From: a virus
Lineage: Duplodnaviria; Heunggongvirae; Uroviricota; Caudoviricetes
Reading direction: 5' to 3' (one strand)
IMG/VR virus record: IMGVR_UViG_2802429253_000001
Span: 1 to 6,245 of that record
Length of the DNA stretch: 6,245 bases
Shown here: positions 748 to 6,245 of the stretch, one piece after another
Layout: each line of letters opens with the position of its first letter
Position numbering within the stretch: position 1 is the stretch's first letter
Notes under the pieces: generated by a model
What the model was told of the DNA's origin: nothing
Database searches by the model: none
The model's input: only the letters and a program-made list of their open reading frames with translations
Translations under genes and position numbers: made by a program

Positions 748-3700
748 ATGGGTAAAGGTAGCAGTAAGGGGCATACCCCGCGCGAAGCGAAGGACAACCT
801 GAAATCCACGCAGTTGCTGAGTGTGATCGATGTCATCAGCGAAGGGCCGATTGAAGGTCCGGGGGATGGATTAAAAAGCGTGCTGCTGAACAGTACGCCG
901 GTGCTGGACAGTGAGGGGAATACCAATATCTCCGGCGTCACGGTGGTGTTCCGGGCAGGTGAGCAGGAGCAGACACCGCCGGAGGGATTTGAATCCTCCG
1001 GCTCCGAGACGGTGCTGGGTACGGAAGTGAAATATGACACGCCGATCACCCGGACCATCACGTCGGCAAACATTGACCGTCTGCGTTTTACTTTCGGCGT
1101 GCAGGCACTGGTGGAAACTACCTCAAAGGGTGACCGGAATCCGTCGGAAGTCCGCCTGCTGGTTCAGATACAACGTAACGGTGGCTGGGTGACGGAAAAA
1201 GACATCACCATTAAGGGCAAAACCACCTCGCAGTATCTGGCCTCGGTGGTGGTGGATAAACTGCCGCCGCGCCCGTTCAATATCCGGATGCGCAGGATGA
1301 CGCCGGACAGCACCACAGACCAGCTGCAGAACAAAACGCTCTGGTCGTCATACACCGAAATCATCGATGTGAAACAGTGCTACCCGAACACGGCACTGGT
1401 CGGCGTGCAGGTGGATTCGGAGCAGTTCGGCAGCCAGCAGGTGAGCCGTAATTATCATCTTCGCGGGCGCATTCTGCAGGTGCCGTCGAACTATAACCCG
1501 CAGACGCGGCAATACAGCGGTATCTGGGACGGAACGTTTAAGCCAGCATACAGCGACAATATGGCCTGGTGTCTGTGGGATATGCTGACCCACCCGCGCT
1601 ACGGCATGGGGAAACGTCTTGGTGCGGCGGATGTGGATAAATGGGCGTTGTATGTCATCGGCCAGTATTGCGATCAGTCAGTGCCGGATGGCTTTGGTGG
1701 CACGGAGCCGCGCATCACCTGTAACGCTTACCTGACCACACAGCGTAAGGCGTGGGATGTTCTCAGTGATTTCTGCTCGGCGATGCGCTGTATGCCGGTA
1801 TGGAACGGGCAGACGCTGACGTTCGTGCAGGACCGACCGTCGGATAAGGTGTGGACCTATAACCGCAGTAATGTGGTGATGCCGGATGATGGCGCGCCGT
1901 TCCGCTACAGCTTCAGCGCCCTGAAGGACCGCCATAATGCCGTTGAGGTGAACTGGATTGACCCGGATAACGGCTGGGAGACGGCGACAGAGCTTGTGGA
2001 GGACACGCAGGCCATTGCCCGTTACGGTCGTAACGTCACGAAGATGGATGCCTTTGGCTGTACCAGCCGGGGGCAGGCACATCGCGCCGGGCTGTGGCTG
2101 ATTAAAACGGAACTGCTGGAAACGCAGACCGTGGACTTCAGCGTGGGTGCCGAAGGGCTTCGCCATGTACCGGGTGATGTCATTGAAATCTGTGATGATG
2201 ACTATGCGGGGATCAGCATCGGCGGGCGCGTGCTGGCGGTGAACAGCCAGACGCGGACACTGACGCTCGACCGTGAAATCACGCTGCCATCCTCCGGCAC
2301 CACGCTGATAAGCCTGGTTGACGGACAGGGGAATCCGGTCAGCGTGGAGGTCCAGTCCGTCACCGACGGCGTGAAGGTGAAAGTGAGCCGGGTTCCTGAC
2401 GGCGTTGCCGAGTACAGCGTGTGGGGGCTGAAGCTGCCGACGCTGCGCCAGCGCCTGTTCCGCTGTGTGAGTATCCGTGAGAACGATGACGGTACGTATG
2501 CCATCACTGCCGTGCAGCATGTACCGGAGAAAGAAGCCATCGTGGATAACGGGGCGCACTTTGACGGCGACCAGAGCGGCACGGTGAATGGTGTCACGCC
2601 GCCAGCAGTGCAGCACCTGACCGCAGAAGTCACCGCAGACAGCGGGGAATACCAGGTGCTGGCGCGCTGGGACACGCCGAAGGTGGTGAAGGGGGGGAGC
2701 TTTATGCTTCGCCTGACCGTGGCAGCGGATGACGGCAGTGAGCGGCTGGTCAGCACGGCCCGGACGACGGAAACCACATACCGCTTCACGCAACTGGCGC
2801 TGGGAAACTACAGGCTGACAGTCCGGGCGGCAAATGCCTGGGGGCAGCAGGGCGATCCGGCATCGGTATCGTTCCGGATTGCCGCACCGGCAGCGCCGTC
2901 TCGGATTGAGCTGACACCTGGCTATTTTCAGATAACCGCCACGCCCCATCTTGCCGTTTATGATCCGACGGTACAGTTTGAGTTCTGGTTCTCGGAAAAG
3001 CGGATTGCGGATATCAGGCAGGTTGAAACCACAGCCCGCTATCTTGGCACGGCGCTGTACTGGATAGCTGCCAGTATCAATATTAAGCCGGACCATGATT
3101 ATTATTTTTACATTCGCAGTGTGAACACCGTTGGCAAATCGGCATTCGTGGAGGCTGTCGGTCGGGCGAGCGATGATGCGGAAGGTTACCTGGATTTTTT
3201 CAAAGGCCAGATAACTGAATCCCATCTCGGCAAGGAGTTGCTGGAAAAAGTCGACCTGACAGAGGATAACGCCAGCAGACTGGATCAGTTTTCGAAAGAG
3301 TGGAAGGACGCCAACGATAAGTGGAATGCCATGTGGGGCGTCAAAATTGAGCAGACCGAAGACGGTAAGCATTATGTCGCGGGGCTTGGCCTCAGCATGG
3401 AGGATACAGAGGAAGGCAAACTGAGCCAGTTCCTGGTTGCCGCTAACCGTATCGCGTTTATTGACCCGGCAAACGGGAATGAAACGCCGATGTTTGTTGC
3501 GCAGGGCAACCAGATATTCATGAACGAAGTGTTCCTGAAGTATCTGACGGCTCCCACCATTACCAGCGGCGGCAATCCTCCGGTATTTTCCCTGACACCG
3601 GACGGGCGGCTGACGGCGAAAAATGCGGATATCAGCGGTAACGTGAACGCGAACTCCGGGACGCTCAACAACGTCACGGTAAATGAAAACTGTACGATTA

Positions 3701-4161
3701 AGGGCATGCTGGAGGCGAACCAGGTCAGAGGTGACTTCGTTAAAACTGTCTCCAAATCATTCCCGAAACAGGCTGGTACGTGGGGTAACACGGAAACACC
3801 AAACGGGACGGTTACAGTCACCATTTACGATGATCATAACTTTGACCGCCAGATTATTATTCCGCCCATTATTTTTAACGGTGTGGCGTATGACGATCCG
3901 GGGAGCGGTAATAACCCGGGAGGTACGCGATACACGGGTTATGGTTTTGAAGTTCGCAAAAACGGCGTATTAATCGCATCCAGAGAAACTAAAGGAGCCA
4001 TTCCCGGTAGTTACAGTGCGGTTATTGATATGCCGAGTGGTGGTGGTAGCGTCACTCTGGAGTTTAAGATTTTCCAGAAAGGCAATCAGGGCGCAGGTAA
4101 CATCACAGACTGTACGGTGATTGTGACCAAAAAAGCTGCTTCCGGTATCAGTATTAGTTGA
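748..4161 (+). CDS. J: Central tail fibre / host specificity protein J (lambda gpJ family), 1137 aa
   Basis: ATG at 748 preceded by GGAG at 737-740 (7-nt spacing); TGA at 4159-4161. N-terminus [28 protein letters not shown] and most of the body are near-identical to lambda gpJ (1132 aa) as I recall it. Lambda gene order is preserved. Confidence 0.95.
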
Positions 4162-4178
4162 ATTTTATAACCCCAATA

Positions 4179-4207
4179 CGGGCGCCAGAAATGGCGCCTT
4201 TTTTATT
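4179..4207 (+). terminator. Rho-independent terminator downstream of J (tJ-like)
   Basis: GGCGCC (4181-4186), loop AGAAAT, GGCGCC (4193-4198), then a T-rich run at 4199-4207 (TTTTTTATT). Confidence 0.65.
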
Positions 4208-4228
4208 GCAGAAAAGCGAGAGGTAATT

Positions 4229-4828
4229 ATGCGTAAATTATGTGCTGTTATTCTGTCTGCAGTAGTCTGGCTGGTCGCCGCTGGTACGCCAGCGAGCGCA
4301 GCAGAGCATCAGTCCACACTAAGCGGCGGGTATCTTCAGTCCCATACTGATATGCCCGGCAACGATGACCTGAAGGGCATTAACGTGAAATACCGTTATG
4401 AATTTACGGACACGCTGGGGCTGGTGACGTCATTCAGCTATGCAGGAGACAAGAATCGCCAGCTTACCCGTTACAGCGATACCCGCTGGCATGAGGATTC
4501 CGTGCGTAACCGCTGGTTCAGCATGATGGCGGGGCCGTCTGTACGCGTGAATGAATGGTTCAGTGCTTATGCGATGGCAGGTGTGGCTTACAGCCGTGTT
4601 TCGACGTTCTCCGGGGATTATCTCCGCGTAACTGACAACAAGGGGAAAACGCACGATGTGCTGACCGGGAGTGATGGCGGTCGCCACAGCAACACGTCTC
4701 TGGCGTGGGGGGCTGGCGTGCAGTTTAACCCGACCGAATCCGTGGCCATTGACCTTGCTTATGAGGGTTCCGGCAGTGGCGACTGGCGCACTGACGGTTT
4801 CATCGTGGGTGTCGGTTATAAATTCTGA
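4229..4828 (+). CDS. lom: Outer membrane protein Lom (Ail/Lom/PagC family beta-barrel), 199 aa with N-terminal Sec signal peptide
   Basis: ATG at 4229 preceded by GAGAGG; TGA at 4826-4828. Signal-peptide-like N-terminus [24 protein letters not shown]. Body ([48 protein letters not shown]...[10 protein letters not shown]) is near-identical to lambda Lom as I recall it, and ends in the aromatic residue typical of outer-membrane beta-barrels. Position between J and stf as in lambda. Confidence 0.95.
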
Positions 4829-4881: not shown

Positions 4882-4892
4882 GTGGAGTGGAT

Positions 4893-6158
4893 ATGGCAGC
4901 AGTAAAAATCTCAGGTGTGCTGAAAGATGGTGCGGGAAAACCAATACAGAACTGCACTATTCAACTGAAGGCAAAGCGTAACAGCACCACGGTACTGGTG
5001 AACACGGTGGCCTCTGAAAATCCGGATGAAGCCGGGCGTTACAGTATGGATGTTGAGTATGGCCAGTACAGCGTCATCCTGCTGGTTGAAGGTTTTCCGC
5101 CTTCACATGCCGGAACCATTACCGTCTATGAAGGCTCCAGACCAGGTACGCTGAATGATTTTCTCGGTGCCATGACGGAAGAGGATGTCATGCCGGAGGC
5201 ATTGCGTCGTTTTGAGGCAATGGTGGAAGAAGCGGCACGCAACGCCGAAGCCGCCTCTCAGAGCGCAGCGGCGGCAAAGAAATCCGAAACTGCAGCGGCA
5301 TCATCGAAGAACGCGGCGAAAACCTCAGAAACGAATGCAGCTAACAGCGCACAGGCGGCAGCGGCCTCGCAGACTGCATCGGCAAATTCCGCGACAGCAG
5401 CTAAAAAATCAGAAACCAACGCGAAAAACAGCGAGACAGCCGCAAAGACGAGCGAAACCAACGCAAAGTCCAGCCAGACGGCAGCGAAGATCAGCGAAAC
5501 AAATGCCAAAGCCAGTGAAACTGCGGCGAAAAGCAGTCAGGATGCAGCAGCCGAAAGCGAGAGCGCGGCAGTCGGTTCTGCGACTTCAGCAGCCGGATCA
5601 GCAACTGCTGCGGCTAACAGCCAGCAAGCAGCGAAGACGAGCGAAACTAACGCAAAGTCCAGCCAGACGGCAGCGAAGACCAGCGAAACGAATGCCAAAG
5701 CCAGCGAAACTGCGGCGAAAAACAGTCAGGATGCAGCAGCCGAAAGCGAGAGTGCTGCAGCTGGTTCTGCAACAGCGGCAGCTAATAGCCAAAAAGCTGC
5801 AAAAGCCAGTGAAACTAACGCAAAGACGAGTGAAACAAAAGCAGCAGCCAGCGAGACAGAAGCAACGTCAGCCGCAACAAGAGCAGAGAATGCAGCCCGG
5901 ATTGCAGAAGATGCCGCTGATCCTGCTTCTGTCCCTCCGCTTCCTGATATCTGGCTACCCTTGAATGATTCTCTGGAAGCGATAACAGGGTATGCCCCGG
6001 GCTATAAAACAATAACCATCGGCAGTGATGAAATAACAATGCCTGTTAATGGCATATGCCAATTTAGCCGCGCTTCATCAGCAACGTATATTGATAAGTC
6101 CGGGCATATTACCGTGGCTGAAGCGGCGCACGAAAAACGCGAAAACGTTTCACGATAA
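4893..6158 (+). CDS. stf: Side tail fibre protein (lambda Stf / orf-401-like N-terminal anchor, long heptad-repeat shaft, short divergent C-terminal domain), 421 aa from the ATG
   Basis: ATG at 4893 with GGAG at 4884-4887 (5-nt spacing). The ORF track begins at an in-frame GTG at 4887, which I judge less likely. TAA at 6156-6158. N-terminus MAAVKISGVLKDGAGKPIQNCTIQLKAKRNSTTVLVNTVASENPDEAGRYSMDVEYGQYSVIL closely matches the N-terminus of lambda orf-401/Stf as I recall it. Confidence 0.85.
   Translation: MAAVKISGVLKDGAGKPIQNCTIQLKAKRNSTTVLVNTVASENPDEAGRYSMDVEYGQYSVILLVEGFPPSHAGTITVYEGSRPGTLNDFLGAMTEEDVMPEALRRFEAMVEEAARNAEAASQSAAAAKKSETAAASSKNAAKTSETNAANSAQAAAASQTASANSATAAKKSETNAKNSETAAKTSETNAKSSQTAAKISETNAKASETAAKSSQDAAAESESAAVGSATSAAGSATAAANSQQAAKTSETNAKSSQTAAKTSETNAKASETAAKNSQDAAAESESAAAGSATAAANSQKAAKASETNAKTSETKAAASETEATSAATRAENAARIAEDAADPASVPPLPDIWLPLNDSLEAITGYAPGYKTITIGSDEITMPVNGICQFSRASSATYIDKSGHITVAEAAHEKRENVSR
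5271..5921 (+). repeat. 21-nt periodic coding repeat: 31 consecutive heptads (consensus A-A-K-x-S-E-T / N-A-K-x-S-x-T) inside the side tail fibre gene
   Basis: Translation of residues 129-345 (track numbering) divides into 31 heptads with no stutter: AAKKSET AAASSKN AAKTSET NAANSAQ ... RAENAAR IAEDAAD. Confidence 0.85.
5439..5795 (+). repeat. Tandem direct duplication inside stf: copy 1 at 5439..5627 (189 bp, 9 heptads), copy 2 at 5628..5795 (168 bp, 8 heptads), with high nucleotide identity
   Basis: Copy 1 encodes AAKTSETNAKSSQTAAKISETNAKASETAAKSSQDAAAESESAAVGSATSAAGSATAAANSQQ. Copy 2 encodes AAKTSETNAKSSQTAAKTSETNAKASETAAKNSQDAAAESESAAAGSATAAANSQK. The copies differ by one heptad (GSATSAA-like) and a few substitutions. 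Confidence 0.85.
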
Positions 6159-6160
6159 AT

Positions 6161-6180
6161 GCGAAAACTTTACTTTTCGC
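6161..6180 (+). other. AT-rich hairpin just after the stf stop (GCGAAAA / loop CTTTAC / TTTTCGC)
   Basis: Read directly: 6161-6167 pairs with 6174-6180. No following T tract, so probably not a terminator on its own. Confidence 0.3.
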
Positions 6181-6193
6181 GCTTCAAACGAAA

Positions 6194-6218
6194 CAGCGGC
6201 ATTGGCCGCTGCTTTTTT
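6194..6218 (+). terminator. Strong rho-independent terminator downstream of stf
   Basis: CAGCGGC (6194-6200), loop ATTG, GCCGCTG (6205-6211), then C and TTTTTT (6213-6218). Confidence 0.75.
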
Positions 6219-6245
6219 ATTCATTAAGTGGAATCACTTCGGGTA

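Follow-up and report, generated by a model that had tools for sequence, protein, structure and literature searches.

A tandem duplication, probably old, in the predicted coiled-coil shaft of a lambdoid side tail fibre gene

The window, i.e. the whole stretch of DNA that was analysed (6,245 nt), is one entire contig, PTSB01000055.1 (6245 bp), of the draft assembly GCA_002965125.1. It carries distal tail genes of a lambdoid prophage, with a side tail fibre gene (stf) that runs into one end of a Mu-like element. Genes and domains were assigned as follows:

46-687: gpI, distal tail module
748-4161: gpJ, distal tail module
4229-4828: Lom, distal tail module
4887-6158: stf open reading frame as listed, 423 aa, with stf homology lost after 6118
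4893..6118, plus strand: 5' part (1226 nt, 408 full codons) of the lambda-type stf
4893..5165, plus strand: N-terminal collar domain, which anchors the fibre on the tail (aa 1-91; placed by the match to PDB 9e7m_Ta and the limits in PMC12617516)
5196..5912, plus strand: Ala/Ser-rich heptad region, predicted proximal trimeric coiled-coil shaft (PCoil; placed by heptad register, AF2, PMC12617516 and PMC3368898)
6119..6245, minus strand: right (mom-proximal) end of a Mu-like transposable prophage, apparently inserted in stf

The stf assignment was based on domain matches and gene order. The prophage tail fibre N-terminal domain (PF08400, phage_tail_N) was found at aa 5-134 of the 423-aa ORF (E 7.7e-67), and the 94-aa 'Tail fiber protein' PDB 9e7m_Ta matched aa 3-95 of the product (E 3.7e-50). 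In the lambdoid tail module the gene follows gpI, gpJ and lom, and its collar leads into a long heptad shaft, both as in lambda-type Stf. Collar limits were taken from Ur-lambda gpStf (PMC12617516). Since PF08400 and the collar match lie in ORF 4887-6158, the repeat described below sits within a lambda-type stf, as had been stated in an earlier note on this DNA. Three minus-strand ORFs overlap the repeat (5258-5509, 5537-5698 and 5598-5792); these were judged by-products of GCN-rich codons.

Ur-lambda gpStf (Yu et al. 2025, Sci Adv, PMC12617516) shares with the window gene the position after J and lom, the same collar domain and a long Ala/Ser heptad helix from residue ~102; the Ur-lambda fibre is trimeric. 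It differs in its distal modules and receptor-binding domains, and in that the window gene is truncated. At the DNA level, lambda was alignable by megablast over query positions 13-476 (86-89% identity), with no alignment of its heptad region beyond 5362. Lambda Stf is not known to have a comparable 63-aa block duplication.

Homology of stf to E. coli prophage genes ended at 6118 (megablast). Relatives were collinear with the window up to ...KSGHITVA and continued with GNNVPRFEK... (…HITVAGNNVPRFEK…), whereas the window reads EAAHEKRENVSR followed by a stop codon (…HITVAEAAHEKRENVSR, stop). Positions 6119-6245 aligned on the minus strand to Mu 36591-36717 and SfMu 37020-37146 with 86-87% identity, and 6119 was matched to Mu 36717 and SfMu 37146, the last base of each record. 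The last 127 nt of the window thus resemble the Mu/SfMu right end (attR, mom-proximal) up to its terminal base, which abuts unrelated target DNA as in a Mu-like insertion. Mu itself was only 86% identical to this element; closer Mu-like E. coli prophages carry 'protein mom' at this place. Among 77 complete E. coli genomes covering at least 80% of this stretch, 24 had it at 95-98% identity and the rest at 80-95%; 'protein mom' was annotated at 11 of the 12 listed places that matched 6119-6245. The contig stops 127 nt into the element, and a single end is present; the other end and the 5-bp target duplication lie outside the contig. From these alignments, a Mu-like prophage appears to have inserted in stf at 6118/6119, after codon 408, and with such an insertion the window stf could not make a fibre with a receptor-binding domain. 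Full-length relatives measure 688-790 aa and are accompanied by downstream genes, and at the other loci compared the full-length ORFs had 701-812 codons; the window lacks both the distal/C-terminal receptor-binding domain and the downstream assembly/accessory genes.

The shaft region consists of ~31 consecutive heptads from 5229 to ~5890 without a register break. Heptad position 2 is Ala in 31 of 32 rows and position 5 is Ser in 29 of 32. An AF2 monomer model placed helices at residues 102-226 and 236-340; it was of low confidence (pLDDT 57, pTM 0.23), folded back at a hairpin break at 227-235, and was used for helicity only. Matches of the heptad region to PDB entries were set aside: the top ones were RNA polymerase II CTD heptads (YSPTSPS), a periodicity artefact and not homology, and a weak match to the T5 L-shaped tail fibre had an E of 5e-4. 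The trimeric state was taken from published work on homologues. For Ur-lambda Stf, a scheme of collar (1-91), linker, proximal trimeric coiled coil (102-393), hinge and distal part has been derived from cryo-EM, cryo-ET and modelling (PMC12617516). In prophage fibre proteins of E. coli O157 that share this N-domain, PCoil is an alpha-helical trimerisation rod, with helicity and trimerisation shown by CD, SEC-MALLS and EM, and PCoil lengths differ in multiples of seven (PMC3368898). Like the window gene, EPclA/EPclB (Ghosh et al. 2012, PLoS One, PMC3368898) have PfN (PF08400) followed by low-complexity Ala/Ser heptads; they continue into collagen-like (Gly-X-Y) domains, whereas relatives of the window stf continue into a non-collagen distal module. 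By analogy with these proteins, the repeated block is taken to lie within PCoil, the trimeric coiled coil of Ala/Ser heptads in Stf.

The following features were located in and around the repeat:

5397..5438, plus strand: upstream 42-nt sub-repeat (AAKKSETNAKNSET), like the head of each copy
5439..5627, plus strand: copy 1, 189 nt = 63 aa = 9 heptads (AAKTSETNAKSSQTAAKISETNAKASETAAKSSQDAAAESESAAVGSATSAAGSATAAANSQQ)
5586..5606, plus strand: extra 21 nt of copy 1 (SAAGSAT), with a placement ambiguous by a few bases
5628..5795, plus strand: copy 2, 168 nt = 56 aa = 8 heptads, one GSAT-type heptad fewer than copy 1
5783: mosaic breakpoint, where query coverage of many matches stops; also placed by protein comparison
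5796..5837, plus strand: two downstream head-like units, 42 nt (AAKASETNAKTSET), which match the head of copy 2 at 15/21 and 14/21 nt

Copy 1 directly adjoins copy 2, head-to-tail and in frame. Tandem Repeats Finder (TRF) reported two arrays of period 189, one at 5427-5770 (score 590, 90% matches, no indels) and one at 5441-5843. At an offset of 189, positions 5439-5585 and 5628-5774 were identical at 134 of 147 nt (91%); this 7-heptad core matched unit by unit at 18, 21, 19, 20, 20, 20 and 16 of 21 nt. When the whole copies were aligned with MAFFT, 147 matches, 21 mismatches and one 21-nt gap were obtained, i.e. 147/168 (87.5%), and the longest run identical between the copies was 31 nt. The coordinates, adjacency, reading frame and 21-nt indel given in the earlier note were thereby confirmed by TRF, offset comparison and MAFFT. 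Its description of the copies as near-identical with a few point changes was too strong in view of the 91% (core) and 87.5% (full) identity and the 21 differing aligned positions. Both unit lengths are multiples of 21 nt (189 = 9 x 21, 168 = 8 x 21), and the register is unbroken, in agreement with the proposal that the shaft was lengthened by a whole number of heptads. Calculated with a rise of 0.148 nm per residue, each copy would add roughly 8-9 nm of rod.

Because the region is low-complexity heptad-coding DNA, the copies were compared with a background of 171 in-phase pairs of 147-nt windows from 5229-5900. Background identity had a median of 73/147 (50%), and the best in-phase pair at offsets other than 168, 189 or 210 reached 94/147 (64%), versus 134/147 for the copies. 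Mere likeness of Ala/Ser heptad-coding DNA, without a true duplication, would be in keeping with the related 21-nt units that make up all of 5229-5900 and with the period-21 and period-42 arrays found by TRF. This reading has a negligible probability, given the excess over background and the identity of ~70% of synonymous sites between the copies (pS 0.30). The repeat is a true nucleotide-level tandem duplication, far above chance for such DNA, and the case of similarity at the protein level only, which the earlier note had named as refuting it, does not apply.

Shorter homologies flank the block. Period-42 arrays were reported by TRF at 5412-5500 and 5618-5719, and the upstream sub-repeat at 5397..5438 could be among the short homologous stretches at which the original unequal exchange was templated. 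In the TRF output a partial third copy begins with the units at 5796..5837.

The gap that accounts for the one-heptad difference was placed by MAFFT at 5598-5618. By hand count from the sequence, the extra unit of copy 1 is identical to the preceding heptad unit at ~14/21 nt, and is therefore not a fresh slip. Copy 2 comprises 9 heptads in most of the other alleles (…GSASAAAASATASANSQK; …AAAGSASAAAASATASANSQK). The 8-heptad copy 2 of the window type goes with a particular distal module (…TSETKAAASETEATSAATRAENAARIAEDAADPASVPPLPDIW…), which was collinear in ~133 complete-genome records. Hundreds of E. coli prophage stf genes were collinear with the window to ~5783 and then continued into another distal module. 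As the 8-heptad copy 2 accompanies its distal module and the others switch at ~5783, the indel lies at a mosaic junction and is itself inherited.

For the age of the duplication, the window was compared with complete genomes and with other two-copy alleles. Out of 5426 complete E. coli genomes, 1025 carried the two-copy stretch 5418-5783 as a collinear block of unchanged length with 93-97% identity, and the two-copy block was also present in the isolated phages PhiR55_1 and 2G7b. The 147-nt cores of 8 two-copy alleles were then compared. Copy 1 differed from copy 1 of other alleles at 0-12 of 147 nt, copy 2 from copy 2 likewise at 0-12, and copy 1 from copy 2 within one locus at 10-17, so that the cores grouped by copy position and not by allele. 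Between copy 2 of the window and that of CE10, E. coli B, 04-00955 or PhiR55_1 there were 2-4 nt differences, versus 13 between the two copies of the window. Of these 13 core differences, 10 were synonymous and 3 non-synonymous (dS 0.38). Across alleles, dS between copies was 0.29-0.55, i.e. 2-3 times the orthologous means of 0.15 and 0.14, and dN was 0.009-0.055 (dN/dS ~0.07). The low dN/dS indicates that the copies have been under purifying selection since the duplication.

The spread among genomes, the grouping by position and the dS values together mean that the duplication predates the diversification of the allele family. The earlier note had regarded it as recent, i.e. as an isolate-specific product of slippage or unequal recombination. 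Adjacent, in-phase copies with a 91% identical core are what such an event would leave. The reading as recent is nonetheless wrong and such an origin very improbable, since the same architecture is present in about one fifth of the complete genomes, copy 2 of the window is closer to copy 2 of other alleles than to its own copy 1, and the dS between the window copies is high; the copies are neither closest to each other nor absent from relatives.

The chance that the repeat was expanded or collapsed during short-read assembly is likewise very slight. The window is the whole contig of a draft assembly, as such an artefact would require, but 366 nt aligned to 366 nt in a single piece in more than 1000 finished genomes and in phage genomes, by which an assembly artefact is excluded. 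No identical inter-copy run exceeds 31 nt, so that ordinary k-mer sizes resolve the two copies. The suggestion that the repeat can break short-read assemblies was not borne out here, as the draft contig runs straight through it.

Two amino-acid polymorphisms were found in both copies across alleles, S/N in K[SN]SQ and E/Q in AAA[EQ]SES. Because they are common to both copies, some inter-copy gene conversion is likely to have occurred, and the relative age based on dS is approximate. If conversion had been repeated (concerted evolution), the duplication would be much older, with copies kept alike and an apparent age that is underestimated. Besides the shared polymorphisms, this is favoured by diagnostic site 50, which has the copy-2 base in some copy 1s, and by the inter-copy recombination that is clear from the single-copy chimeras described below. 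We consider it unlikely, as core offsets 5, 20 and 143 are fixed between the copies in all 8 two-copy alleles and copies cluster by position, not by allele; any conversion would therefore have been patchy and not homogenising.

Single-copy alleles were found in at least 4 complete genomes (CB209, MSB1_4I, FFFEB2 and AVS0655), in the isolated phage IdasGreatGrand and in two draft contigs (L011 and L012). Collapse artefacts were rejected as the explanation of the two draft-contig cases, as single-copy alleles also occur in finished genomes and in an isolated phage. Nine majority diagnostic sites were used to distinguish copy 1 from copy 2. In pattern 111212222 the change from copy 1 to copy 2 lies between offsets 77 and 143, and in pattern 111222222 between offsets 20 and 50. 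Phage IdasGreatGrand had 211212222, with the switch between offsets 77 and 143. FFFEB2 had 111211111, which was read as copy 1 throughout with no switch at the nine scored sites. By eye from aligned rows, L011 equals LF82 copy 1 up to GGTTCTGC and LF82 copy 2 thereafter. Judged by these sites, the single-copy alleles are chimeras of a copy-1 head and a copy-2 tail, with at least two clear crossover positions and with FFFEB2 as a case without a located junction. The two clean switch points differ, so at most one of them could be ancestral; they represent separate deletions of 189 nt, produced when the copies recombined unequally. Different unit numbers with chimeric junctions are the marks of a copy-number-variable repeat; such alleles were rare, with ~5 single-copy versus ~1050 two-copy records.

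Homologous proteins were surveyed with the best 120 clusters per search, giving 176 clusters in all, mostly of partial (contig-end) proteins. RRFE-to-PLPDxW spacers of 145, 152, 159, 180, 194, 201, 229, 243, 250 and 257 aa were recorded among these 176 clusters; the lengths differ by multiples of 7, and the 194-aa class is exactly 63 aa below the 257-aa class. A motif for the block occurred twice in 120 of the 176 listed clusters, once in 20, three times in none and not at all in 36. These counts are minima, since the motif misses variant copies (in 2G7b one block was scored and two are present). Among the clusters listed only losses were seen, and no expansion beyond two copies. A synthetic three-copy protein query was covered to at most 72% within the best 120 clusters per search, mostly partial proteins, and no three-copy allele was found among them, which is weak evidence for the absence of such alleles. 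APEC E12049 and LF82 have about the same receptor-binding end, and all 106 gapped positions between them fall within the coiled-coil region. Counted from the translations, their RRFE-to-PLPD spacers are 152 aa (APEC E12049) and 257 aa (LF82) and thus differ by 105 aa, which equals 15 heptads. With a similar receptor-binding end on shafts of unequal length, shaft length and receptor-binding module reassort independently. The view of the repeat as a site of fibre-length variation was supported by the chimeric single-copy alleles in complete genomes and an isolated phage; 'length-variation hotspot' is right in a modest sense, the variation being rare and the block not a high-frequency contingency locus.

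Taken together, a block of 63 residues (9 heptads) in the proximal trimeric PCoil shaft of a lambdoid stf was very probably duplicated in tandem and in frame long ago, and is inherited in a common E. coli allele. Judging from the anatomy of the region, the duplication probably started in a single-copy ancestor by unequal homologous exchange or slippage between flanking 21/42-nt heptad-coding sub-repeats. A unit length divisible by 21 nt keeps the heptads in register and simply lengthens the rod, and the duplication would then have spread with the allele. Afterwards the copies diverged mainly at synonymous sites under purifying selection. Occasional recombination between them gives exact 189-nt deletions and so single-copy alleles with a shorter shaft. 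The window genome inherited the block with a very common prophage stf allele, the duplication not having arisen in the isolate, and the one-heptad difference between the copies together with the window-type distal module.

Unequal crossing-over in in-frame tandem repeats leads to length variation of fibrous coiled-coil proteins. The window block resembles such cases in that its units are in frame and in register and that deletion products are chimeric between neighbouring copies; it differs in that its copies share only 87-91% identity and seldom vary in number. Heptad-quantised length variation of the PCoil-type coiled coil has already been published. The 9-heptad tandem duplication itself is apparently undescribed in PMC3368898, and a literature search yielded only general PCoil and Stf papers.

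A further proposal is that the 63-residue block acts as a length cassette, so that its gain or loss by unequal recombination, at ~9 nm per copy, would tune the reach of the side fibre whatever receptor-binding domain it bears. We regard this as quite doubtful. If true, fibre reach could match the thickness of the O-antigen or capsule layer of the host, and the predominance of two copies would reflect selection on fibre length; the Gly-containing heptads that end each copy, where the AF2 model breaks (227-235), might then add a flexible joint.

As a property of lambdoid side tail fibres the repeat is ordinary; it has been sequenced before, and its concept is published. It is fixed in a common tail-fibre allele of E. 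coli prophages (about one fifth of complete genomes), matters little beyond bookkeeping, and should not be taken as a sign of recent rearrangement or misassembly. The stf of the window is dead regardless, the gene apparently being interrupted by the Mu-like prophage. The independent reassortment of shaft length and receptor-binding end is relevant for the engineering of lambda-type Stf chimeras.

Hundreds of E. coli prophage genes for the lambda-type side tail fibre (stf) were collinear with the window until approximately position 5783, and beyond this point switched to another distal shaft and receptor-binding module. The breakpoint falls inside the tandem block of copy 1 (5439-5627) and copy 2 (5628-5795), and the window gene itself is interrupted further downstream.

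Window ~5783: mosaic recombination breakpoint, within the tail of copy 2
Window 6119-6245: Mu-like transposable prophage, right end (mom-proximal), junction with stf at 6118/6119

The adjoining Mu-like end cuts stf short after codon 408, and the stop of the listed stf ORF (6156-6158) lies within the Mu-like sequence. The window is an entire draft-assembly contig (GCA_002965125.1; PTSB01000055.1) and carries a single end of the Mu-like prophage. The contig probably terminates here owing to repeats of Mu-like or tail sequences within the source genome. In complete E. coli genomes no whole-contig match of at least 99% was found, the best being 93-95%.

Related stf loci in three E. coli strains showed the following.

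CE10 (L001), 2167-4521: stf, two 'incomplete' pseudogene pieces in RefSeq
04-00955 (L003), 2164-4539: stf, 'incomplete' N-terminal piece and separate intact CDS in RefSeq
BL21 (L008), 1306-2502: homologous stf, 5' side cut by an IS3-family element

For CE10 and 04-00955, RefSeq left the heptad-repeat region without annotation, and an open reading frame of 797 and 804 codons, respectively, spans it. This annotation in both strains looks like an artefact caused by the low-complexity repeat. What remains of the gene in BL21 begins within the heptad region, a short way 5' of copy 1; besides the Mu-like end in the window, this is a second case of a mobile element disrupting stf.

Plasmids gave 117 matching places in total, and part of the same coiled-coil block was present at 85-94% identity in the following.

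H114, H115 and H184: matches on E. coli plasmids of 106,011 bp
H183: further plasmid match

The plasmid genes with the partial block are annotated as 'phage head spike fiber domain-containing protein', and their carriers, roughly 106 kb in size, are possibly phage-plasmids.

In the AlphaFold2 (AF2) monomer model of Stf, the long helix was interrupted at residues 227-235 (nt ~5571-5597), with pLDDT below 50 at residues 223-237. The break coincided exactly with the heptads containing Gly (VGSATSAAGS) in the terminal part of copy 1. In such a model the interruption is probably an artefact of monomer fold-back; alternatively, residues 227-235 could form a flexible spot.

When the protein encoded by window positions 5190-5930 was searched against PDB sequences, the top matches were RNA polymerase II CTD repeats (E ~3e-5). 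Kinship with the CTD was rejected, the matches being spurious and due to periodicity, and they call for caution when such heptad regions are annotated.
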